In this document: in pieces, positions 8,535-28,004 of the stretch
Numbering within the stretch: the first letter of the stretch is position 1
Layout: every line of letters begins with the position of its first letter
DNA from: Delftia acidovorans NBRC 14950
Lineage (GTDB): Bacteria > Pseudomonadota > Gammaproteobacteria > Burkholderiales > Burkholderiaceae_C
Direction: 5' to 3'
Assembly: GCF_001598795.1 (NCBI RefSeq)
Contig: NZ_BCZP01000012.1
Location: 90,001-122,000 of the forward strand
DNA length: 32,000 nt
Notes under the pieces: generated by a model
What the model was told of the DNA's origin: nothing
Database searches by the model: none
What the model saw: only the letters and a program-made list of their open reading frames with translations
Program-made: the position numbers and the translations under genes

Positions 8535-10379
8535 ATGCGCCTGCGTTCCACCATCGATTTCCTGCTCTATGAATGGCTGCGCGCCGATGCGCTGGGCGAG
8601 CGCGAGCGCTTTGCCGACCATTCGCGCGACACCTTCGATGCCGTGCTCGACACCTGCGAGCGCATCGCCCGCGAGAAATACGCCCCCTTCAACCGCACCG
8701 TGGACACGCAGGAGCCGCAGTTCGACGGCGAGAAAGTCATCCTGCCCCAGTGCACCCACGATGCGCGCCAGGCCTATGCCGACTCGGGCATGCTCAGCGC
8801 CGCCCAGGACTACGACATCGGCGGCATGCAGCTGCCCTATACCGTGGAGGCGGCAGCCAACAGCTTCTTCGCGGCGGCCTCCATCAGCATCGGCTCCAAC
8901 ATGCTGACCTCGGGCAATGCCAATGCCATCATGGCCCACGGCACGGACATGCAAAAACAGGTCTTCGCCACCAATGAATTCAATGGCCGCTGGGCCGGCA
9001 CCATGTGCCTGTCCGAACCCCAGGCCGGCTCCTCGCTGAGCGACATTGCCACCCGTGCCGAGCCCGATGGCGCCGACTTCGAGAGCGATGCGCTGGGTCC
9101 GCGCTACCGCCTCAAGGGCAACAAGATGTGGATCAGCGCGGGCGACCATGAGCTGACCGAGAACATCGTCCATCTGGTGCTGGCCAAGATCCCCGGGCCC
9201 GATGGCAAGCCCGTGCCCGGCGTGCGGGGCATCTCGCTGTTCATCGTGCCCAAGAAGCTCGTGGACACCGAAGGCCAACTCACCGGCGAGCGCAACGACG
9301 TGGCCCTGGCCGGCCTCAACCACAAGCTGGGCTGGCGCGGCACCACCAACACGCTGCTGAACTTCGGGGAAGGCCGCTTTCCCGTGCGCGGCGGTGCCGG
9401 GGCCGTGGGCTACCTGGTCGGCAAGCCCGGCGAGGGCCTCAAATGCATGTTCCACATGATGAACGAGGCCCGCATCTCCATCGGCATGGCCGCCACCATG
9501 CTGGGCCTGGCCGGCTACCACGCCAGCCTGGACTATGCGCAGAATCGCCCGCAGGGCCGGCCGATCAAGGGGGCGCCGGGTGCAGCCGGCAAGGATGCCA
9601 CGCGCCCCCAGTCGCGCATCATCGAGCACGCCGACGTCAAGCGCATGCTGCTGGCGCAAAAGTCCTATTGCGAAGGCGCGCTGGCGCTGAACCTGTTCTG
9701 CGCGCGCCTGGTCGATGAGCAGCACACCGGCACGCCCGAATCCGTGGCCGAGGCAAGGCTGCTGCTGGAAGTGCTCACCCCCATCTCCAAAAGCTGGCCC
9801 AGCGAGTTCTGCCTGGAGGCCAACTCCCTGGCCATCCAGATCCATGGCGGCTACGGCTACACGCGCGACTTCCCCGTGGAGCAATACTGGCGCGACAACC
9901 GCCTGAACATGATCCATGAAGGCACGCACGGCATACAGGCCATGGACCTGCTGGGCCGCAAGGTGCTCATGGAAGGCGGCAAGGGCCTGCAGCTGCTGGC
10001 CACGCGCATCAACGACACCATCCAGCGCGCCATGGCCCGGCCCGAACTGGCCGGCTATGCCAATGAACTGGCCAAGGCCCTGCAGGAAGTCGGCGCCACC
10101 ACCAAGGCCGCATGGGCCACCGACGACCCGCAACAGGCCCTGGCCAATGCCGTGCCCTACATGCAGGCCTTCGGCCACACGGTACTGGCCTGGACCTGGC
10201 TGGACGTGTCCCTGGCCGTGCTGGACAAAGACCCGGGCCTGACCGCTCCCGCCAACGCTGGCCGCATGGCCGCCATGCGCTACTTCTTCGGTTACGAACT
10301 GCCGAAGATCGGCGCCTGGCTCAAGGTCGTGCGTGAGCGCGACATGACCTGTGCGCAGATGAGTGAAGAGGCGTTCTGA
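8535..10379 (+). CDS. Long-form acyl-CoA dehydrogenase (about 614 aa, with a C-terminal extension domain)
   Basis: Track ORF 8427..10379, trimmed to the ATG at 8535 (MRLRSTIDFLLYEWL...). ACAD motifs are WISAGDHELTENIVHLVLAK and IHGGYGYTRDFPVEQYWRDNRLNMIHEGTHGIQ. Confidence 0.88.
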   Translation: MRLRSTIDFLLYEWLRADALGERERFADHSRDTFDAVLDTCERIAREKYAPFNRTVDTQEPQFDGEKVILPQCTHDARQAYADSGMLSAAQDYDIGGMQLPYTVEAAANSFFAAASISIGSNMLTSGNANAIMAHGTDMQKQVFATNEFNGRWAGTMCLSEPQAGSSLSDIATRAEPDGADFESDALGPRYRLKGNKMWISAGDHELTENIVHLVLAKIPGPDGKPVPGVRGISLFIVPKKLVDTEGQLTGERNDVALAGLNHKLGWRGTTNTLLNFGEGRFPVRGGAGAVGYLVGKPGEGLKCMFHMMNEARISIGMAATMLGLAGYHASLDYAQNRPQGRPIKGAPGAAGKDATRPQSRIIEHADVKRMLLAQKSYCEGALALNLFCARLVDEQHTGTPESVAEARLLLEVLTPISKSWPSEFCLEANSLAIQIHGGYGYTRDFPVEQYWRDNRLNMIHEGTHGIQAMDLLGRKVLMEGGKGLQLLATRINDTIQRAMARPELAGYANELAKALQEVGATTKAAWATDDPQQALANAVPYMQAFGHTVLAWTWLDVSLAVLDKDPGLTAPANAGRMAAMRYFFGYELPKIGAWLKVVRERDMTCAQMSEEAF

Positions 10380-10410
10380 GGGAGTTGGCAGCACGGCTGC
10401 CGGAGGATGC

Positions 10411-10447
10411 AAAAAAGCGCGGACCATGTGGTCTGCGCTTTTTTTAT
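10411..10447. terminator. Bidirectional rho-independent terminator between the fad operon and the convergent AT-rich islet
   Basis: AAAAAAGCGCGGACCA-TG-TGGTCTGCGCTTTTTTT: an 11-bp stem flanked by an A-run on one side and a T-run on the other. Confidence 0.8.
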
Positions 10448-10448
10448 T

Positions 10449-10952
10449 TCAGGGATTTTCAAGGTTGCCGGAGAGCCTGGCCTGCTCTTTGACCCATTCC
10501 CTGGTTTTTCCGCGAATGCACCAGTCTGGGTTTTTGACCCAGTCTGTGAAATATATGGTTGGGTGATCCCTTAGGATGCTGCAATTGGTATATCCAAGCT
10601 TTGGCAATGCATAGTACTGCAATGGAATTAATATAATAAATGAAATGGCTATGCTTGCAAAATTAATGGAAAGCATAATTATCAAAATGCGCTCCATAAT
10701 TTTTAGCACTCTTTCTTTGCAAGGAATTGTATTTGCGATCATCGTTAGTAAGAGAATCACTGGTGTTGGAAGTGAAGAGATTAATAGTGGTGTGATTGGG
10801 ACTATTTTTACAATTGCTTCATTGTTGTGAAGGTCCCTAATATTAGGAAGCGTATCATTAATACAAATGAGAACATTGACAATGAATATGAGAATTAGGA
10901 ATGGAATTCCCCATATGGAGTTTCTTCTGTTTGTGATTGTGCGATTTTTCAT
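10449..10952 (-). CDS. 167-aa three-TM membrane protein, putative immunity protein (paralog 1, paired with the orphan toxin fragment)
   Basis: Track ORF with an ATG start. It has a basic N-terminus (MKNRTITNRRNS), three hydrophobic helices and a conserved C-terminal domain: PLQYYALPKLGYTNCSILRDHPTIYFTDWVKNPDWCIRGKTREWVKEQ. It is a same-length paralog of 11458..11961. The region is AT-rich; one 60-nt line (10621..10680) counts 14/60 G+C. The immunity function is inferred from context only. Confidence 0.75.
   Translation of the reverse strand: MKNRTITNRRNSIWGIPFLILIFIVNVLICINDTLPNIRDLHNNEAIVKIVPITPLLISSLPTPVILLLTMIANTIPCKERVLKIMERILIIMLSINFASIAISFIILIPLQYYALPKLGYTNCSILRDHPTIYFTDWVKNPDWCIRGKTREWVKEQARLSGNLENP
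10489..10625. repeat. Copy A of the conserved 3' block of the membrane-protein paralogs
   Basis: Aligns with 11501..11637 at an offset of 1012 nt, including the identical run TTTTTGACCCAGTCTGTGAAATATATGGT. Roughly 80% identity by eye. Confidence 0.75.
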
Positions 10953-10967
10953 CTTCTTTAATTGTTT

Positions 10968-11396
10968 TTATTTTTTTCTGAATTTGACTCGCCAATATTT
11001 ATCGGCTTGATTGAGCGCAAAGCCGGTGATGAGTACGGCTACAGCCATGGCAAAGAGCGGCATCACTGCCACGGTCGTCATTCCAGCGGTTATGGTGGCC
11101 GCCACTATCCCAGCAAGTGTTCCCGGTCCTGCTTTCACGGCCTCTACCCCAATCCCGGCCACAAGATCATGAATGGTCTTCTCGTCATTGAAGATGAAGT
11201 CCCGTGTCTCTATGCCGGTGCCCACCACCAGGCTCAGAAGAAACCCGCCCTTGGCCACATTCTGCAGACCGCGAATGCCCAGGTCCATCTGGACCATACG
11301 TGGATTGGCGGCAAGAAATCGCGTGCCTTGCAGCAGCTGGCGGCGAAGTCCCGCGTGGCTCGTGATAGCGAGGAGGCATTCTGCGCAAGCAGGCAA
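10968..11396 (-). CDS. Orphan, 5'-truncated copy of the C-terminal part of the 325-codon toxin-like gene. It has only a TTG start, so independent expression is doubtful.
   Basis: Residues AGLRRQLLQGTRFLAANPRMVQM.LGIRGLQNVAKGGFLLSLVVGTGIET.DFIFNDEKT.HDLV.GIGVEAVKAG match 11970..12947 at 72 of 76 positions by my count. The sequence then diverges through a Gly/Ala/Thr-rich region and a TM segment, ending in KFRKK. Upstream of the homology there is no ATG, only a TTG. The stop lies 15 nt before the paralog-1 membrane protein ATG. Confidence 0.6.
   Translation of the reverse strand: MPACAECLLAITSHAGLRRQLLQGTRFLAANPRMVQMDLGIRGLQNVAKGGFLLSLVVGTGIETRDFIFNDEKTIHDLVAGIGVEAVKAGPGTLAGIVAATITAGMTTVAVMPLFAMAVAVLITGFALNQADKYWRVKFRKK
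11130..11366. repeat. Copy A of the toxin switch-region repeat (inside the orphan fragment)
   Basis: Aligns by eye with 12303..12539 at an offset of 1173 nt. The core 11161..11366 shows about a dozen mismatches in about 206 nt. Roughly half are synonymous third-position changes in the minus-strand frame. Confidence 0.85.
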
Positions 11397-11457
11397 AGCA
11401 CCTGTCTGACAAGAGACATATCAAAAGCGAAGGCCAAGCGGTCCCCACTTTTCTATT

Positions 11458-11961
11458 TCATGGATTTATTTCTGAATTGCCGGTCAGAAGGGCTTGATCC
11501 TTGACCCATTCTCTGGATTTTCCGCGAACGCACCATTCGGGGTTTTTGACCCAGTCTGTGAAATATATGGTGGGATGCCCTTCCAGGATATTGCAGCGTG
11601 TATAACCAAGTTTGGGCATTGCATAGTATTGCAAAGGAGTTATGAGTGCAAGGCAAGAAGCCATGATTATTAATCCTGCCAGCATGGTTGCGTTAAAGGT
11701 GCGTTCGGTTACCTTTAAAATTGATGTTTTGCATGGTATTGCCTTAGATAATGAGGAAATTAGACCGACTGCCAATATTACGGGAAAATATGCTACGACT
11801 GGTGCACCGGGTGTTATTCTTATTGACGCTGATAGTTCAATGAGATCTTTAATATCATTAAATATTGCATGCTTAATGTACCAAATGCAAAGAACAAAAA
11901 TGAAAACATTTAATGGAATGCCCCATATCAAGGTTTTCCTTATTTTTTCTGCGTCCAACAT
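11458..11961 (-). CDS. 167-aa three-TM membrane protein, putative immunity protein (paralog 2, paired with the full-length toxin-like gene)
   Basis: Track ORF. The ATG at 11961 lies 8 nt after the TAA of the upstream 325-codon gene (TAA TCAAGAAA ATG). The C-terminal domain is PLQYYAMPKLGYTRCNILEGHPTIYFTDWVKNPEWCVRGKSREWVKDQ. The TM region has diverged from paralog 1, but the IWGIP and IPCK landmarks are kept. Confidence 0.75.
   Translation of the reverse strand: MLDAEKIRKTLIWGIPLNVFIFVLCIWYIKHAIFNDIKDLIELSASIRITPGAPVVAYFPVILAVGLISSLSKAIPCKTSILKVTERTFNATMLAGLIIMASCLALITPLQYYAMPKLGYTRCNILEGHPTIYFTDWVKNPEWCVRGKSREWVKDQALLTGNSEINP
11501..11637. repeat. Copy B of the conserved 3' block of the membrane-protein paralogs
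   Basis: See copy A. Confidence 0.75.
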
Positions 11962-11969
11962 TTTCTTGA

Positions 11970-12947
11970 TTAGTTTTTACGATTTGTGCGGCACATAAAT
12001 TCATTTTTGAAAATTTCTGTGGAACAATTGTTAAATTTATACTCTATCTGCTGATAAGGTTTCTGATTATCAAAATTGAGTTTGTCGATATTTATCCGAT
12101 ATATGCCTTGAGGTATGCTACTGGTGGAAATGCGCAGCATATTGATCACACGTTGTTTGATTTTTAAATCATCGTCTATTTGATTCAAGATGATTCCTGT
12201 GACAAGTACGGCCACTGCCACAGCAGCCAAAGGAAGAATTGCAAGGGACGTTGCCGTTGCAAGCTTTATTCCCAAGCCAAGGCCTACCATCGTCGCCAAT
12301 CCCGCCTTGACTGCCTCCACCCCAATCCCTCCCACAAGATCATGCATGGTCTTCTCGTCATTGAAGATGAAGTCCACTGTCTCTATCCCGGTGCCCACCA
12401 CTAGGCTCAGAAGAAACCCGCCCTTGGCCACATTCTGCAGACCGCGAATACCCAGGCCCATCTGGACCATGCGTGGATTGGCGGCAAGGAATCGCGTGCC
12501 TTGCAGCAGCTGGCGGCGAAGTCCCGCGTAGCCCGTGATGATGATATAGGTGCCTGTGGCGGTTGTCTTGATATAGGAGCGGGCACCGGCCAGGCCCAAT
12601 GCAATCAGCGTTTTGGTGATCAGGTACGCGTCGCTGACCATCAGAGAGGCGGGAGCGACCCAGGGTTTGCCTGCATTCGGGCTGGCGGTGTGTGTCCAGT
12701 ATCGCCCAAGCGCACTGTGGGCCAGCATGGCATGCAGCGTGGCCGCCAGGCGAGGATTGTTACGCGCCTTGTCGCTCAGTATGTCTGCATATTCCTGTGG
12801 CTTGAGCACAATGGCATCTATCTGTTTTTGCTCCATTTGGCGAGCAAGCATGTCGGCATAGCCGATCTGATAGAAGGTGGCGGCAATGGAGGCTGGCATG
12901 GTGTATGGAGACGCTGGATCAGAAGCGGAATAGAGGATTCCAGCCAA
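11970..12947 (-). CDS. Hypothetical 325-codon protein, putative membrane-targeting polymorphic toxin. It has no signal peptide and no recognisable domain.
   Basis: Track ORF. The annotated start at 12947 is a TTG with a weak AAGG upstream; the first ATG is at 12899. The C-terminal third contains glycine-zipper-like stretches (GGIGVEAVKAGLATMVGLGLGIKLATATS), a hydrophobic helix (LAILPLAAVAVAVLVTGIIL) and an AT-rich tail of about 65 aa. The toxin call is inferred from architecture, not from homology. Confidence 0.7.
   Translation of the reverse strand: MAGILYSASDPASPYTMPASIAATFYQIGYADMLARQMEQKQIDAIVLKPQEYADILSDKARNNPRLAATLHAMLAHSALGRYWTHTASPNAGKPWVAPASLMVSDAYLITKTLIALGLAGARSYIKTTATGTYIIITGYAGLRRQLLQGTRFLAANPRMVQMGLGIRGLQNVAKGGFLLSLVVGTGIETVDFIFNDEKTMHDLVGGIGVEAVKAGLATMVGLGLGIKLATATSLAILPLAAVAVAVLVTGIILNQIDDDLKIKQRVINMLRISTSSIPQGIYRINIDKLNFDNQKPYQQIEYKFNNCSTEIFKNEFMCRTNRKN
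12303..12539. repeat. Copy B of the toxin switch-region repeat (inside the full-length gene)
   Basis: See copy A. GC-rich conserved block, bounded on its 3' side (minus strand) by diverged AT-rich sequence. Confidence 0.85.
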
Positions 12948-13059
12948 TGCGCCTTGATCAATAAAGGCAATCTGACGGAAATGAGTGGTTGCAAGCAGGA
13001 AAATAATCCGCTGTCAGTGTCCAAGCGGGTTTCTGATGTTTGCTTTGCGAAGAGTCCTC

Positions 13060-13088
13060 ATTTGATTTCATGGCCTGCACGAGGTCAA
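13060..13088 (-). promoter_or_regulatory. Candidate sigma70 promoter for the toxin-like operon
   Basis: On the minus strand: TTGACC (13088..13083), a 17-nt spacer, then TCAAAT (13065..13060). It lies in the AT-rich non-coding stretch upstream of 12947. Pattern match only. Confidence 0.25.
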
Positions 13089-13454
13089 TCAAAGAAGTCG
13101 CCCACAGATCATTTTCAGAATTATCCTTAGGACAATTCCTAAAATCAGGTTTGAAATGTCAGGTGAATAGAGGTGCTGCCAATGAGCGTTTGGTCCCAGG
13201 CAGCGCCATTCGCCATGGGCGGTATTCACGGGGCACAAGCGCAGGCTGCCCGGCTCGGCCACGGGCATTTGCGGATGAAGGATGCGGGGAGAGGTGGTCC
13301 GTACCGCCGCTGCGCTTGCGGGCAGGCTGTTGGACCGGGGTATGGGCTACGGTCTCACCGTGCTGAATGCTTGCAGACGAGGACTCAGGGACCGGGTTTC
13401 AGCGCATCGGAAGCCGTGCAGGCGCTGAAGGCCGCCTGCCGGAGGGTGCATGCC

Positions 13455-15092: not shown

Positions 15093-17168
15093 TCACAACG
15101 CCAGATGCAAAGCCTCCCCCGTCCCCTGCGCAGGCACCGCACAGCAGATCAGGGCCTCGCCCGCCGGCACGGCGAAGGAGGGCGGGGATGCATAGGTCAC
15201 GCCGCCTTCCAGCACGCGAGCACGGCAGTCGCCGCAGCTGCCGCCCCGGCAGCCGAAGGCGGGTTCCAGCCCCCTGGCCTCGGCCACTTCGAGGAGGCTG
15301 CCGTCGCCGGGCTTCCAGCGCGCTTCCTTGGCCGAGTCGGCAAAGATGATGCGGACAGGCTGCGTGGCGGGTGCAGGCAGTTCGGCGGCGGGGGCTGCAC
15401 CGGCCATGGAGCGCTTCAGGGCCGAGGGACCGAAGGCTTCTGCGTGGATGCGCTCGTCGGGCACATTGCGTTCGCGCAGGCCGTCATAGGTGGCCTGCAT
15501 GAAGGCGTCCGGGCCGCAGAGGTAGAAGTCGTAGTCGTCCCAGGGCAGGGTGGCTTTCAACAGGGCCATGTCGATGTGGCCCTCATGGTCGTAGTCGCGG
15601 CCGGCCTTTGCCGTGCCGGGCTGGCTGAGCGTTCGCACCCAATGCACCTCGGCATTGCCGGCCTTCACCAGTTCGGCAATCTCCGTGTCAAAGGCCCGTT
15701 CGCTGCGCGTGCGAGCCGCCTGGAACAGCCAGGTGGGCCGCAGGCTGCGGGTGCGCCGGCCTTCGTGGACGATGTGGCGCAGCATGGCCAGCAAGGGCGT
15801 GATGCCTATGCCCGCGGCCAGCAGCACGGCGGGGCGGCGCAGGGCCGCATCGGCGGTGAAGCTGCCAGCGGGCGGGCGGGCCTCGACCAGATCGCCTGGC
15901 TTCAGGCCATGCAGATGGCTGGACGCACGGCCTTGCTTCTTGACGCTGATGCGCAAGCGCCCGTCCGAAGGCGCCAGCGACAGCGTATAGGTGCGCTGCA
16001 GATGGCTGCCGTCCGCCAGCGTGAGGCGCAGCGGCAGATGCTGGCCGGCCAGGGGGGCCACCGTGGCCATGCCATCGGCCGGCTCCAGGTAGAGCGAGCG
16101 GATGGTGGAACTCTCATCCACGGCCTGCGCCACCCGGAACGGCCGCCACTGTCGCCCCAGCCGGGCGGCGGCCAGGCGCTGGCTGGCATCGGCCCAGCTT
16201 CCGGTCATCTGCAGGTGGGGCGACCAGCCGTCGGCTGCCATGCTCCAGCGCAGCGGCAGGGCGTCGGGCCGGCGCACGATGCGGCGGGGCTTGAAGGTCC
16301 ACAGGCGCTCGGCGCCCTCGAAGGCCGCGATTTCCGGGGAGTCGAGGATGACGCTGGCCTCGCCCGTCATCTGCAGCATCTCCCCGGTTTCGGAGTCGAT
16401 GAACAGCAGGCCCGCCTTGGGATTGACCAGGAAGTTGCCCAACGTCATGAAGAACAGGTTGCCCGAGAAGTCGGGGATGGTCAGCGTTCCATCGGCGTCG
16501 ATCCGCACAAAGCCCGGCTTGCCGCCACGGTGGGAGACATCGACCTGCCGCAGGCCATCCTCCCCATCAACGTAGGACGCCACGTAGAACGTATCCGCCT
16601 GCGCAATCAGTGCCTGTGCGCGCTGGTCCAGCGATGCCAGTTCGACCGCCGGCACCTGCGTGGGCTCGTCCGCAGGCCGGACAAACCGGACGCTGCGGTT
16701 CTGGATATAGCGCGGGCAGTTGCCGAAGCTCTGGACCACGCCGATGTCGAAGGCGCCCGCCCCATCAACGCCTGTCTTGCGCCGCACCGTACCGTTGAGC
16801 CGGTTGCGCCGGCGCGTCATGGGGTCCATGCCCAGCAGGCCCACGGCATGGCCATCAGCCAGGCCCGGCTCGGCCGGGTCGGCCGCATCGCGGCCCGCTG
16901 CCACATGCAGGGTCGATGGATCGGGAGAGTGCAGGAAGCCCGGCTCGCCGGCCCGTACCGTGGCCCAGGCGTCGCCTTGCGCATCCACGCTGCCCAGCAC
17001 CACGAAATGCAGCAGCGGATAGAACTCGCGGTGCTGGTCCAGCAGGAAGGGGCGCAGGAACTTGCGGCCCGGCATGTCCATGCGGCCCACGACGCCAACG
17101 CTTTGCTGGATCGCCAGTTCGCCCGCATGCCAGGGCGAGGCAGGGTTTTGCAGGGGTTGCGGTTGCAT
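15093..17168 (-). CDS. Three-domain fusion oxidoreductase: pyridoxamine-5'-phosphate-oxidase-like FMN-binding domain, ferredoxin-NADP reductase-type FAD/NAD domain and plant-type [2Fe-2S] ferredoxin
   Basis: Track ORF 15093..17369, trimmed to the ATG at 17168 (AAGGAG Shine-Dalgarno). RTYTLS is the R-x-Y-S/T FAD motif, LLAAGIGITPLLAML is the NAD(P) motif, and the C-terminal CRGGSCGDC...ICC is the 2Fe-2S motif. Confidence 0.85.
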   Translation of the reverse strand: MQPQPLQNPASPWHAGELAIQQSVGVVGRMDMPGRKFLRPFLLDQHREFYPLLHFVVLGSVDAQGDAWATVRAGEPGFLHSPDPSTLHVAAGRDAADPAEPGLADGHAVGLLGMDPMTRRRNRLNGTVRRKTGVDGAGAFDIGVVQSFGNCPRYIQNRSVRFVRPADEPTQVPAVELASLDQRAQALIAQADTFYVASYVDGEDGLRQVDVSHRGGKPGFVRIDADGTLTIPDFSGNLFFMTLGNFLVNPKAGLLFIDSETGEMLQMTGEASVILDSPEIAAFEGAERLWTFKPRRIVRRPDALPLRWSMAADGWSPHLQMTGSWADASQRLAAARLGRQWRPFRVAQAVDESSTIRSLYLEPADGMATVAPLAGQHLPLRLTLADGSHLQRTYTLSLAPSDGRLRISVKKQGRASSHLHGLKPGDLVEARPPAGSFTADAALRRPAVLLAAGIGITPLLAMLRHIVHEGRRTRSLRPTWLFQAARTRSERAFDTEIAELVKAGNAEVHWVRTLSQPGTAKAGRDYDHEGHIDMALLKATLPWDDYDFYLCGPDAFMQATYDGLRERNVPDERIHAEAFGPSALKRSMAGAAPAAELPAPATQPVRIIFADSAKEARWKPGDGSLLEVAEARGLEPAFGCRGGSCGDCRARVLEGGVTYASPPSFAVPAGEALICCAVPAQGTGEALHLAL

Positions 17169-17214
17169 GGTGCGCTCCTTTGCCGGGGGTTCAGGGGAGG
17201 TGTGGCTCAGGCAC

Positions 17215-17826
17215 TCAGGCCCGCAGGCCGGCCGGTGTCTGGGCGAATGCCACGAAGCCCGGCAGCGCCTCGATGCGGCCCAGCCAGGCGCGCACTTCGC
17301 GGTAGGGCTGCAGGTCCACATTGCCCTCGGGCGCGCTGGCGATGTAGCTGTACAGGGCCACGTCGGCAATCGTGGGCGTAGCGCCGGTGAGGAAGGGGCG
17401 GGTGGTCAATTGCGCCTCGATCTTGCCGAGGATGGCGTGGGCGCGGGCTATCACTTCCTCGGCCTGGAAGGGGGCCTTGAACACCGTGACCAGCCGGGCC
17501 GCCGCCGGGCCGAAGGCGATAGGGCCGGCGGCGATGCTCAGCCATTTCTGGATCTCGGCCTCGGCCTGTGCGCCCAGGGGCATCCAGTCCTGGCGGTCCA
17601 GCTTGCGCGCCAGGTAGACCAGGATGGCGTTGGAGTCGGCAATCACCGTGCCGTTGTCGTCCAGCACCGGCACCTGGCCCAGTGGGTTCAGCGCCAGGAA
17701 TTCGGGCTTCTTCTGCGCGCCGTTGGCCAGGTCCACATGGACCAGCTCATGCTCCACGCCCAGCAGGCCGAGGAAAAGGCGGGCGCGATGGGCGTGGCCG
17801 GACAGGGGAAAGTGGTAGAGCTTCAT
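17215..17826 (-). CDS. Glutathione S-transferase, 203 aa
   Basis: Track ORF 17215..18363, trimmed to the ATG at 17826 (AAGGAA Shine-Dalgarno). The sequence begins [24 protein letters not shown]...[10 protein letters not shown]. Confidence 0.88.
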
Positions 17827-18927: not shown

Positions 18928-19093
18928 CGGCCAGTGCCTGGAAGCCATCTCCCGCGCATTGCAAACCATGTGCACCAGCGCCGAATCGCTGGATTGCGGC
19001 TTTGTCGATCAGGCCGAGGTCAGGCGCAGGGAGGCTGCGCAGGTGGCTCGGGAAATGACTTTGGGATTGGGCGCGTAGGCGGGCATGGCGTTT

Positions 19094-19900
19094 CTATTGG
19101 GAGAATCGGGTTGTTTCTCCTTGAAATAGATAGGCAAATGCCATTTCGTCGGAAGGCGGATTCTTCAAATTGAAGCGAGTGACATTCAGAACACCGTGCC
19201 AGCCCGCTGGATGTGAATAGCCATCAATCGCCGTCAATCCGACGGTCTGCCATTTTCCATGGTTGTGGAATTCGCCTTTCCCGTTGCGAACATGCCAGTT
19301 GACCTCTCTAACGCGCAGGCACTCGCTGCCCTTGGCTGTGCTGTCCTTGCATGGCACATGTTGCGCTTCGACTTCCAGAAGAATCGGCTGGCCCTCACTT
19401 CCGTACTTCGTTTTTGGTGTGGGTTCGCCTTTCAGTTCCCAGCGGCTACCATCGGCAAAGCGTAGTTGCAGATGGGGCGGTGCGTCGGCGATTGCCGTTG
19501 TCAATGTGTAGTGAAATTTCCTTGACAGCAAGTCACTTGCCCATTTTTGGAGCTCCATCAATGGCTCGGGACACCCGGCCATCGTGTAGATTCCGGGCTT
19601 GATCTGGAGGCTTGCATCGGCATCCATCTCATATTTCCAGGTCATGAAATTGCATATCTGTGTGCCGAAATCTCCATCTTTGGAGAACCAGAGCTTTATT
19701 GAGGGGCTGTCTGGTGTTTTCCAATTCTTTTTCTCTTTGCCTACGGCATCGAAAGCCTGCTGCAGGTTCCACTCGTAGGCAGATAAATACTCCGCGTCCT
19801 TGTTTTGATGCGGTAGCGCACTTTGGCTGGCAATGTGTTCCATGCCGTGGCTTGCAGTGGACAAAAGTATGGCTGCCATGAATTGAAGAAAAGCTTTCAA
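19094..19900 (-). CDS. Secreted protein with a META (HslJ-like) domain and a DUF4377-like C-terminal domain
   Basis: TTG start at 19900 with a GAGGG Shine-Dalgarno 6 nt upstream. The signal peptide is MKAFLQFMAAILLSTASHG. The META-like pattern is ICNFMTWKYEM...YTMAGCPEPLMELQKW. The C-terminal pattern is C..GSECLRVREVNW...IDGYSHPAGWHGVLNV. Domain names come from memory of family patterns. GC is lower than in the flanks. Confidence 0.6.
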   Translation of the reverse strand: MKAFLQFMAAILLSTASHGMEHIASQSALPHQNKDAEYLSAYEWNLQQAFDAVGKEKKNWKTPDSPSIKLWFSKDGDFGTQICNFMTWKYEMDADASLQIKPGIYTMAGCPEPLMELQKWASDLLSRKFHYTLTTAIADAPPHLQLRFADGSRWELKGEPTPKTKYGSEGQPILLEVEAQHVPCKDSTAKGSECLRVREVNWHVRNGKGEFHNHGKWQTVGLTAIDGYSHPAGWHGVLNVTRFNLKNPPSDEMAFAYLFQGETTRFSQ

Positions 19901-19933
19901 TTGAAGCCCTCAAGGTGGTGACCAGAGAACCCG

Positions 19934-20185
19934 CTATCGCAGGGAAGATGCCTCGACCCAGATCGTCTGCCCCGGATGGTGTTCCTCAATGGTGGACACG
20001 GCATCGTCGATCAAAACGCGGTCCTCCAGCGAGTAGGCAAAGCGGCTGAGGTTGGGCCATTGTCGGGCGGCGTAGTCGGCCTCGGAAATCGCGTCGCTGC
20101 CGCACCAGGTGGCGTCGTTTTCGGTGGCGGCGCGAAGTGCCTGTGCCAAGCCGGTAGATGTGATCGCCAGGAAGATCATGGGCAT
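19934..20185 (-). CDS. Small hypothetical protein (83 aa)
   Basis: Track ORF with an ATG start and protein-like composition. It lies 33 nt upstream of, and co-oriented with, the META-domain gene. No clear Shine-Dalgarno sequence. Confidence 0.45.
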   Translation of the reverse strand: MPMIFLAITSTGLAQALRAATENDATWCGSDAISEADYAARQWPNLSRFAYSLEDRVLIDDAVSTIEEHHPGQTIWVEASSLR

Positions 20186-26121: not shown

Positions 26122-26583
26122 TCAAAGCCCCGTCAACTGCGGCAATGCCTTCTCGCAGGCCTTGCGGCACAGGTAGCGCAGGTCCTGTTCACCATCTTCA
26201 CTGCGCAGGTAGCCGGCACCGGCGGCGTTGATGTTCCATTCATAGACCTTGCCCGAGCGCAGCAGCCGTCCGCTGAAACTGCAGGGCAGGATGATGGATT
26301 CCTCGTGGAAGCTGCCAGCCGAAACTTGCTTTGCCGTCGCGAAATAGCGGGCCACGTCGGCGGCGTCCAGGCTGACTTTCTCGCATCCCATGGTCTCGCC
26401 CGTGCCCACGGAACGGGTGACCGGGCCGATGACGGAAATGGGTACCGCCTTGGCAGCGTGTTTGGGCGTGGATGTGGAAGTAGATGAGGCCTGCAGCGGC
26501 GCATGCAGGCACAGCATCACGGCAGCCCAGGCGGCAATGCGCAGGCTGCGAGAGGGATTGTTGAAAAGCTGGCTGGATGGCAT
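26122..26583 (-). CDS. Signal-peptide-bearing 153-aa protein, candidate periplasmic immunity protein for the adjacent amidase
   Basis: The signal peptide is LRIAAWAAVMLCLHAPLQA/SS and the mature part has four cysteines. The ATG at 26583 lies 3 nt after the amidase TGA (TGA GCC ATG). The function is inferred from gene context only. Confidence 0.65.
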   Translation of the reverse strand: MPSSQLFNNPSRSLRIAAWAAVMLCLHAPLQASSTSTSTPKHAAKAVPISVIGPVTRSVGTGETMGCEKVSLDAADVARYFATAKQVSAGSFHEESIILPCSFSGRLLRSGKVYEWNINAAGAGYLRSEDGEQDLRYLCRKACEKALPQLTGL

Positions 26584-26586
26584 GGC

Positions 26587-27219
26587 TCAGGCTCCCGTGA
26601 AGATGTAGCGCAGCAATTGGGCGCCTTCGGTCGCTTCCTTGCGGGCAATGGCGCCGTGGGAGTAGACATCGGACAGAAGCTTGAGCTTGTAGTGGTCCAC
26701 CAATTGCTGGGTCAGCCATTTGGTCTGGAACAGCTGCGATTGGGTGGGCGCCTCGTAATCCTTGGTCGATGGCAGGAAACGGCCCACCACCTCGATGCCC
26801 ACGGAGTCGCTGTTGGCCGGATAACGCAACGGATAGGCCTTTGTGTTCTCGTGCGATGACACATTCTTGGCTCGCTTGCTGAAGCTCAGGCCCTTTTGGT
26901 GCAGCAGGGCATTGATGTTCTTGAGTTCCGTGGGATCGCAGGTGCTCTCGTTGACGCAGCGTGGCTGAAGAATTCCCACATGCCAGCAGATCTTTTCCAG
27001 ACTGGCGGTTTGTTAGATCTTCCCGTCCTTCTCGATCAGAAAGTGCGCCCCCGTCTTCTGGCCGCTCTTGTAGGCATTGAGCACGCTGGCTGCCGTGGAC
27101 GAGTCAGTGCGGTGTAGCACGATGGATGTGACGGACAGCAAGGCGCCGTGCTCTATGGATGGATAGGTCTTGACTTCGACGCTTTTGTCTACCATCAATC
27201 CTTTTTCGATAGTGGCCAA
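26587..27219 (-). pseudogene. Amidase_2 (AmpD/PGRP/T7-lysozyme fold) N-acetylmuramoyl-L-alanine amidase, no signal peptide, interrupted by one in-frame TAA at 27015..27013
   Basis: Track ORFs 27013..27219 and 26587..26979 are in the same frame. The read-through is ...SIVLHRTDS...GAHFLIEKDGKI*QTASLEKICWHVGILQ...SVGIEVVGRF...VYSHGAIARKEATEG. The IVLH.T, AHFLI..DG, WH.G, S.GIE..G and H-x-x-I-A-x-K-x-x-x-E-G landmarks match the Amidase_2 family. The second track ORF starts at a GTG inside the WHVG motif, so that is not a real start. A GGGAG Shine-Dalgarno sequence precedes the ATG at 27219. Confidence 0.75.
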
Positions 27220-27440
27220 TTATTTCTCCCTCTGTATTCCGGCTGAATGAATGCGAATGGCGGAAAGCCGGGAGAGCATACGTGGCAGAGGGATATGAAT
27301 GATTCAAAATGTACAATTCATGCCTGATTGGAAATATCTTGAAACAATTAAGGGGATTTATGAAGTCTTGATGAATGGTGAGCGCATGTGTTCATGTCTT
27401 TGCATCGGCCATGAAGTACCTCATGGCCTTGTACACCTGT

Positions 27441-27908
27441 CTAATGGGTTTTGATTTCGATGATCATTCCGAAGATAAACGCAATCCCCAACCCAAAAAT
27501 AGTGCCAAGAGAATTCAGGAAAATATATTCAAGATCCGTAGAAAACGGACCATTCATGGAAAAAATCAGAGAAATGCCAAGATATGGAATGGAGCCTGCG
27601 ATGGCTCCATAAATCGAAAGATTCAATAGTGTCAAAAGGTTGTGTTTATTCAGCATGAATATGCCAGGCAGACCCAGAATGACGAAGCCTGTATAGCTGC
27701 AGGCCCAAATCGGGAAGATCAGCAAGCCGATCCAGCTGTCCCCGCTGATTCTTGCTGTGGCAAGAATTGCCAATATCACCGCGGGGAAAAATGGCGCAGC
27801 CAAGCATGCGGCAAGCATTCTGGGCGTAATGCAGATAAATGATTGAGTCTGCAACTCATGGGCGTCTGGCCTGACGGAATTCATCCGTTGCGGAATCATT
27901 TTTTCCAT
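27441..27908 (-). CDS. 155-aa four-TM membrane protein, hypothetical (AT-rich)
   Basis: Track ORF with four clear hydrophobic helices (e.g. WIGLLIFPIWACSYTGFVILGLPGIFML and FLNSLGTIFGLGIAFIFGMII). Not similar to the 167-aa paralogs. The true start among several Met codons is uncertain. Confidence 0.55.
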   Translation of the reverse strand: MEKMIPQRMNSVRPDAHELQTQSFICITPRMLAACLAAPFFPAVILAILATARISGDSWIGLLIFPIWACSYTGFVILGLPGIFMLNKHNLLTLLNLSIYGAIAGSIPYLGISLIFSMNGPFSTDLEYIFLNSLGTIFGLGIAFIFGMIIEIKTH

Positions 27909-28004
27909 GATGGAGTGGTGGATTCACAGTTGGAAATGGCTGAAAGGAGTGGCCATCGTATTTGCCCTCTGTGAAGTCAGTGAGAAGTGGCTTGGACCGG
28001 CAAT

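Follow-up and report, generated by a model that had tools for sequence, protein, structure and literature searches.

A low-GC islet with two probable toxin/immunity cassettes

Between the terminator of the fad operon and a GNAT gene of Delftia acidovorans NBRC 14950, within a 32,000-nucleotide (nt) stretch of the chromosome (contig NZ_BCZP01000012.1, positions 90,001 to 122,000 of the forward strand; hereafter the window), lies an islet with a G+C content (GC) of 0.32-0.59 against a window mean of 0.648. We interpret it as a stand-alone effector/immunity module of the Tme/Tmi kind, with the mechanism and locus history set out below, a reading to which we assign a probability of about 0.8. The Tme family (of type VI membrane-disrupting effectors) and the Tmi immunity family were defined by Fridman et al. 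2020 (Nat Commun 11:1085, PMC7046647). In 300-nt windows, GC falls to 0.32-0.35 in the islet versus 0.64-0.70 in its flanks, and a recount reproduced exactly the G+C counts of an earlier note made from the sequence alone (14/60 at 10621..10680 and 39/60 at 10261..10320). That note had also described four minus-strand open reading frames (ORFs) in two homologous cassettes (11970..12947, 11458..11961, 10968..11396 and 10449..10952), with spacings of 8 nt between the stop of the toxin gene and the ATG that opens the first immunity gene (imm1) and of 15 nt between the orphan toxin stop and the ATG of the second (imm2), all of which we recovered. Cassette 2 is 92.5% identical to cassette 1 over 240 nt (11366..11127 versus 12539..12300), and the 3′ ends of imm1 and imm2 share 79% nucleotide identity. 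The features of the islet are as follows (aa, amino acids; TM, transmembrane):

11970..12899, minus strand: tme allele A, a predicted 309-aa Tme-family effector, delimited by the identical database protein P0001 and by conserved N-termini
12291..12647, minus strand: conserved Tme core of the toxin, residues 85-203, with the invariant block DFIFNDEKTMHDLVGGIGVEAVKAGL within it
11970..12290, minus strand: variable toxin module, residues 204-309 and the stop codon (GC 0.38)
11458..11961, minus strand: tmi-A (imm1), a 167-aa three-TM DUF1240-like predicted immunity protein with a variable N-terminal membrane part
11367..11457, minus strand: junction, in which, by alignment, the terminator and the final ~20 nt of the acyl-CoA dehydrogenase gene recur in diverged form
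10968..11366, minus strand: apparent orphan tme C-terminal remnant of allele B, ~residues 121-248, start codon absent
10449..10952, minus strand: tmi-B (imm2), a 167-aa intact orphan immunity gene matching allele B
10405..10440, both strands: bidirectional intrinsic terminator common to the islet and the convergent fad operon
12900..13454, minus strand: upstream intergenic region, the presumed promoter site (GC 0.56; 97% conserved in other Delftia strains)

The terminator is supported by folding in both directions (free energy, dG, -19.7 and -24.7 kcal/mol; z -5.1 and -5.3); a consensus scan for promoters and terminators was uninformative and missed this true terminator owing to one stem mismatch, as the folding showed. 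There are no tRNA genes in the window. A phage or lysis-cassette context was ruled out, as such genes are absent from every neighborhood examined.

A probable toxin, divergent within the Tme family

The 325 codons that the earlier note gave the toxin are those of the maximal ORF from a TTG at 12947. This start is ruled out: the N-termini of the family all align from the ATG at 12899, which gives 309 aa, the length of P0001. The protein is without a signal peptide, as had been noted; of the two kinds of segment read into it, the hydrophobic C-terminal one is present (~199-238), and the glycine-zipper-like ones reduce to a single strict GxxxG motif. Pfam, NCBIfam and PADLOC scans of the four islet proteins gave nothing above threshold. 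The toxin had been said to belong to no recognizable family, which is explained by the lack of a model for the Tme domain in the Pfam and NCBIfam copies used. We find instead that it is a divergent Tme-family member: comparison of the Delftia/Acidovorax family with the Escherichia coli Tme family by hhalign gives a probability of 98.9% (E 3e-17, 222 columns), BLASTP aligns the toxin with WP_000908051.1 of E. coli SE11 (24% identity over 174 aa, E 1e-11), and the family motif is kept. This 304-aa E. coli protein is among the entries listed as Tme in Supplementary Data 5 of Fridman et al. (PMC7046647), and it is via this listed member, not via the Vibrio proteins Tme1 and Tme2 themselves, that the link to the family runs.

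The C-terminal domain of published Tme proteins is marked by a nearly invariant DxxK motif, a TM helix and a flanking Asp (PMC7046647). In the islet toxin, E195-A-V-K198, the hydrophobic stretch 199-238 and D242 align with D209xxK212…D260 of the E. coli protein, and E195 and K198 form an acidic-xx-K motif within DFIFNDEKTMHDLVGGIGVEAVKAGL, the invariant block of the toxin core. Of 131 aligned superfamily members, 91 have D and 38 have E at position 195; 123 retain K198, 127 retain P223 and 123 retain D242. By alignment, then, the published DxxK-TM-D motif is present, with Glu for Asp in the Delftia clade as a conservative departure. The Tme-domain core of the toxin comprises ~residues 85-265, and most of the 647 cluster representatives retrieved with the Delftia/Acidovorax family profile (E<=1e-3 among 1.84 billion proteins) are matched over profile positions ~85-265. 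The closest relatives come from Delftia (99% down to ~57% identity), followed by Paracidovorax/Acidovorax (46-53%), and all are annotated as hypothetical. With the E. coli Tme protein as the query, all homologs found were enterobacterial, no Delftia or Acidovorax entry was found in the part of the family table of Fridman et al. (PMC7046647) that was searched, and a literature search for Tme in either genus found nothing specific. The toxin and its immunity partner are accordingly a new, unannotated and divergent member of Tme/Tmi, not a new category of system. The earlier proposal of a membrane-targeting toxin is supported; that of an undescribed membrane-targeting system gives way to a published kind.

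Hydropathy analysis predicts that the variable toxin module is a hydrophobic helical hairpin (~199-238; conserved P223 and D242) plus a tail. The AlphaFold2 (AF2) model of the toxin has a mean predicted local distance difference test score (pLDDT) of 76.7, exceeding 90 over ~residues 160-260, and displays long helices at 151-179, 185-216, 221-245 and 247-260. Antiparallel packing of helices 185-216 and 221-245 into a hairpin would bring E195 and K198 opposite D242 at one surface of the membrane, and two 18-residue hydrophobic arms of such a hairpin would span the bilayer. Foldseek found no match to the toxin model in the PDB at E<=1e-3, nor did a profile search of PDB sequences.

The predicted immunity proteins: three TM spans and a likeness to DUF1240

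The two 167-aa proteins are diverged paralogs, as proposed earlier, with 46% identity (E 5e-51), three hydrophobic spans and, by hydropathy analysis, a basic N-tail each. Because of this N-tail and the three spans, the C-terminal domain is predicted to be periplasmic; in Tmi-A it is a conserved domain of 59 aa with two invariant Cys. The AF2 model of the immunity protein (pLDDT 87.6) consists of three long helices and a small C-terminal domain with the Cys pair, and Foldseek found no match to it in the PDB at E<=1e-3. Both genes thus encode a small membrane protein with three TM spans within 50 bp downstream of tme or its remnant (gaps of 8 and 15 nt). The layout recurs widely, with the toxin followed by 1-7 immunity paralogs at 37/37 further Comamonadaceae loci as well as at the four loci examined before.

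Tmi proteins have been described as DUF1240 or DUF1240-like proteins with 3-6 TM helices, in what is the only substantial literature on DUF1240 (PMC7046647). Most homologs of the islet immunity proteins have a precomputed hit to PF06836.19 (DUF1240), the Paracidovorax avenae homolog Acav_1439 is followed by three proteins with precomputed DUF1240 hits, and hhalign of the immunity proteins against the flagged DUF1240 proteins gives 99.9% and 96.6%. On these precomputed hits and profile comparisons, we designate the immunity proteins DUF1240-like. Versions of the DUF1240 model behave very differently: proteins with precomputed PF06836.19 hits have no PF06836.17 match even at E<=10. As for the E. 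coli pair, the hcp-linked Tme protein in the table of Fridman et al. is predicted to have as its Tmi partner the product of ykfM (strain SE11, locus L006, 4237..4716).

Alleles at a fixed site and cassette exchange

Delftia strains differ at the site between the GNAT and acyl-CoA dehydrogenase genes, where at least four alleles occur:

Allele A: the window and P0001; context confirmed directly
Allele B: P0005, Delftia sp. 60; context confirmed directly
Allele C: P0006, 275 aa, the most often sampled by far; context confirmed directly
Allele D: P0003, putatively at this site, where it is placed solely by its 98.5% identity to allele A over residues 1-203

Across alleles A-D, identity is 98-99.5% in toxin residues 1-203 and 27-44% from residue 204 to the end; in the immunity proteins, it is 25-32% in residues 1-108, which hold the three TM helices, and 76-86% from residue 109 to the end. 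From these breakpoints it follows that the exchangeable unit consists of the hairpin and tail of the toxin and the membrane domain of the immunity protein, bracketed by two conserved arms. The same unit is AT-rich, with a GC of 0.32-0.45 in each Delftia allele (the window, L010, L014 and L007). On contigs L001 and L002, allele A is accompanied by a chimeric immunity gene, which passes from imm1-type to imm2-type near its 3′ end; recombination in the 3′ arm of the immunity gene therefore does occur. These results bear out the polymorphic toxin/immunity layout suggested by the earlier note, that is, a full-length effector/immunity pair and, behind it, a displaced orphan C-terminus that has an immunity gene of its own, and the C-terminal variation among homologs that it called for is found beyond toxin residue 203, with linked immunity paralogs that co-vary.

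The sampled Delftia flanks have a GC of 0.61-0.65, and the cassettes of P. avenae (L005) are near the composition of their genome (0.56-0.65). Delftia has a second tme locus (L007/L008, 10001..12892), which encodes P0046 (325 aa) and three immunity paralogs and adjoins Mrr_cat and NACHT-NTPase genes in L008 and L009 and an integrase gene in L007. Some Acidovorax/Paracidovorax loci (L030, L035 and L029) display 5-7 tandem immunity paralogs behind one toxin, and Acidovorax sp. SUPP3334 has six toxin loci.

The orphan cassette and its origin

The second toxin ORF had been taken for a 5′-truncated copy without an ATG, and this stands: codons 1-120 are gone, an in-frame stop closes the reading frame upstream and the homology boundary lacks a start codon. 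To be corrected is the C-terminal side, where ~182 nt of the tail (toxin residues ~249-309) are also deleted relative to allele B. The fragment further carries the changes G148D, G190A and L201P at family-invariant positions. Its affinity is with allele B: the window is 94.3% identical to the allele-B toxin gene over 11366..10983 and 95% identical in nucleotides to the allele-B immunity gene and flank over 10974..10307, and the imm2 protein is ~93% identical to the allele-B immunity protein of Delftia sp. 60. Judged by these alignments, the orphan is a decayed allele-B remnant whose immunity gene is intact. The 91-nt junction, as a second copy of the terminator and gene end, implies that cassette A came from the homologous locus of another lineage and displaced the resident allele. 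Its hairpin is degenerate (dG -13.7 kcal/mol, z -0.9), and read-through into imm2 is therefore plausible. Among the 37 further loci, a toxin fragment is retained in at most one (L055, a possible case).

Linkage to type VI secretion and alternative readings

Relatives of the toxin are embedded in type VI secretion system (T6SS) loci or fused to T6SS components, and the claim that the system is delivered by an unknown route is not supported. P0126 (E 4e-57) is encoded inside a TssL/K/J/A/B/C/Hcp cluster, with a DUF1240-like gene downstream; P0127 (E 5e-54) is preceded by vgrG-PAAR and followed by a Tae4/Tai4 pair; P0270, the Pseudomonas alliivorans member, adjoins vgrG-DcrB-PAAR-Rhs; and P0217 and P0224 have N-terminal PAAR domains (E 5e-18 and 9e-17). 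About 70% of the published Tme genes adjoin T6SS genes and about 30% are unlinked (PMC7046647), and one T6SS cluster is present in all the D. acidovorans and D. tsuruhatensis genomes that have been examined (PMC4572682, PMC9045143). On this footing, we strongly infer T6SS delivery of Tme in the Comamonadaceae clade. As the earlier note had stated, there is no T6SS gene near the islet: the window is free of T6SS markers by tblastn with a set comprising Hcp, VgrG, PAAR, TssA/B/C/K and Rhs. VENN, hemagglutinin, Rhs/YD and cdiB have no Pfam or NCBIfam matches in the islet proteins, for which no MIX- or RIX-directed search was made.

Several observations weigh against the Tme/Tmi assignment or against T6SS delivery. 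With the same marker set, T6SS genes were found within 10 kb at 0/37 Comamonadaceae loci from reference genomes, nor are there any within 10 kb in the window, L005, L007, L008, L010 and L014; the presence of a T6SS in NBRC 14950 is itself read from genus-level literature. The N-terminal ~84 residues of the toxin match no known T6SS loading domain, again with no MIX- or RIX-directed search, and position 195 is, invariantly in the Delftia/Comamonadaceae clade, Glu in place of the canonical Asp. On the immunity side, PF06836.17 gives E 0.12 for imm2 (13.4 bits versus a cut-off of 24.3) and no match for imm1, 0/100 members of the immunity family match it at E<=0.01, and neither imm1 nor the immunity profile has detectable similarity to E. 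coli YkfM. Lastly, the experimental data on Tme are those for Vibrio Tme1 and Tme2 only (PMC7046647).

Part of this evidence would fit a Tme-like pair that, in Comamonadaceae, reaches its target not through a T6SS but through vesicles, lysis or an unknown contact system, or that serves as an abortive-infection or addiction module. Such a pair would account for the want of T6SS markers within 10 kb and for an N-terminal region without Pfam or NCBIfam matches, and the defense-type neighbors of paralogous loci, namely AbiJ/Abi_C in L005 and Mrr_cat with a NACHT NTPase in L008, would suit it. We nevertheless regard it as quite unlikely: relatives at E 1e-54 to 1e-57 lie in T6SS loci and two are PAAR fusions, unlinked loci make up that same ~30% of the published family, and Delftia and Paracidovorax are T6SS-positive genera. 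Also against it stand the absence of PADLOC matches, arrays of up to seven immunity paralogs, which fit protection from incoming toxins and not addiction, and the toxicity of published Tme proteins, which is far stronger from the periplasm than from the cytoplasm (PMC7046647). The invariant motif Glu, the clade's own N-terminal region and the lack of hcp, vgrG or PAAR near the surveyed loci could even be taken to mean that the Comamonadaceae Tme clade as a whole has been uncoupled from T6SS, toward an undescribed route or a self-directed membrane-depolarizing defense module. We hold this to be very improbable; if true, AT-rich hairpin and immunity cassettes of such a clade would be exchanged through two built-in homology arms.

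As for the orphan, it might be a silent reserve cassette for toxin-type switching, as has been proposed for CDI (contact-dependent growth inhibition) and Rhs systems, or might encode a short membrane peptide from an internal Met. The 240 nt shared at 92.5% with the expressed gene would offer a usable homology arm, L001 and L002 attest to cassette recombination, and the ORF is open from 11396 to 10968 with internal ATG codons. The ~182-nt tail deletion, the three substitutions at invariant positions, the upstream in-frame stop and the missing start codon at the homology boundary speak against these roles, as does the rarity with which remnants are kept (at most one other, L055, of 37 loci), and we consider them unlikely. 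That the islet holds housekeeping membrane proteins, its cassettes being an incidental duplication, would agree with the database names, which are all 'hypothetical protein', and with the constancy of the neighboring genes that flank the locus in many Delftia strains. It is extremely improbable in view of the identity breakpoint (98-99.5% to 27-44%) with co-varying partners, a composition foreign to the genome, the immunity paralog arrays and the homology of the toxin to a validated toxin family.

Proposed mechanism and locus history

Under the preferred reading of a stand-alone Tme/Tmi module, we posit that the cell's single T6SS would be loaded with the 309-aa Tme and would fire it into Gram-negative neighbors, as is likely for the clade as a whole. 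From the periplasm, its hairpin (~199-238) would insert in the inner membrane of the target, with E195-x-x-K198 and D242 clasping one face, and would thereby dissipate the membrane potential and make the membrane permeable, as predicted by homology with Vibrio Tme1 and Tme2. These are known for periplasmic toxicity, loss of membrane potential, uptake of propidium iodide without lysis and protection by the cognate Tmi only (PMC7046647). In the inner membrane of the producer, the co-transcribed three-TM Tmi-A would likewise neutralize its cognate toxin only. Recognition of Tme by Tmi would probably proceed by helix-helix packing within the membrane, because the toxin hairpin and tail co-vary with the immunity TM region. 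Homologous recombination would swap the variable cassette, i.e., toxin residues 204-end and immunity residues 1-108, between two conserved homology arms: the toxin core as the 5′ arm and, on the other side, the immunity gene's 3′ end. In the window, an incoming allele-A cassette would have displaced the resident allele B, the toxin C-terminus of which would since have decayed, leaving tmi-B intact as an orphan that presumably protects against kin still firing allele B.

A block of proteins annotated as hypothetical in Delftia, Paracidovorax/Acidovorax and Comamonas can thus be named and given a function open to testing; the carriers include plant pathogens and opportunistic human pathogens, with up to six copies per genome and seven immunity paralogs per locus. 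The fixed-site alleles mark a sharp boundary of the specificity module, which comprises the hairpin and tail of the toxin and the TM region of the immunity protein, and constitute a natural experiment on how Tmi recognizes Tme within the membrane. To our knowledge, there is no solved structure for any Tme or Tmi.

Other observations around the islet and in the window

Strains also vary upstream of the GNAT gene (compared with window 15093..17369): L001, L002 and L014 have an AAA_33 kinase-like gene that is split in L015 and missing from L010 and L016, which suggests that small-scale variability near the islet goes further. Four minus-strand ORFs in window 26122..27908 belong to a second patch of lower GC (0.48 at 27001-28000):

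27441..27908, minus strand: 155-aa multi-TM protein
26587..26979, minus strand: 130-aa protein that matches Amidase_2 in part (E 2.5e-9, over positions 67-123 of the 131 in the profile)
26122..26583, minus strand: 153-aa protein with a signal-peptide-like N-terminus
within 26122..27908, minus strand: 68-aa ORF

The same four-gene block occurs in L059 and L060 between EamA transporter and TPR protein genes; its amidase could be a small effector that acts on peptidoglycan and is paired with an immunity protein, or else an ordinary cell-wall enzyme. In a third patch of lower GC (19001..20000, 0.50-0.56), a LysR-type regulator gene and a sigma70/FecR gene flank a minus-strand gene (19094..19900) for a 268-aa META + DUF4377 protein; it looks like an ordinary secreted or lipoprotein gene.

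Comparison with known systems

No sequence or fold relation was detected, by Foldseek against the PDB or by the profile search of PDB sequences, between the islet proteins and the pore-forming or membrane-depolarizing T6SS effectors VasX, Tse4, Ssp6, Ssp4 and Tke5, with which the islet shares a predicted attack on the inner membrane from the periplasmic side and an immunity protein in the membrane. The likeness to CDI (cdiA-CT/cdiI) and Rhs orphan modules is one of layout: a full-length pair is followed by a 5′-truncated C-terminus that keeps a conserved stretch and an immunity gene, and recombination between cassettes is evidenced. The islet proteins belong to another family, however, without VENN, Rhs/YD or hemagglutinin repeats in the Pfam/NCBIfam scans, the islet orphan toxin is degraded and the conserved 3′ end of the immunity gene provides a second homology arm. 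Closer is the E. coli pair of WP_000908051.1 and YkfM, in which a 304-aa toxin (versus 309 aa here), homologous over 222 profile columns, is followed after a 9-nt gap by a 159-aa three-TM partner (versus 8 nt and 167 aa). In that case, unlike the islet, tme lies directly downstream of hcp in T6SS-1, in the order tssM, a VasL-domain gene, hcp, tme and ykfM, and YkfM is without detectable similarity to the Delftia immunity proteins. From the Tme/Tmi pairs of Vibrio parahaemolyticus, the islet departs in the Glu that replaces the canonical motif Asp, in an N-terminus matched to no PAAR or VgrG and in belonging to a set of Comamonadaceae loci never T6SS-linked in our survey. With these pairs it shares a toxin of ~300 aa without a signal peptide, the C-terminal acidic-xx-K motif, hydrophobic TM segment and flanking Asp, and a downstream gene for a DUF1240-like immunity protein with three TM spans and a highly diverse sequence.

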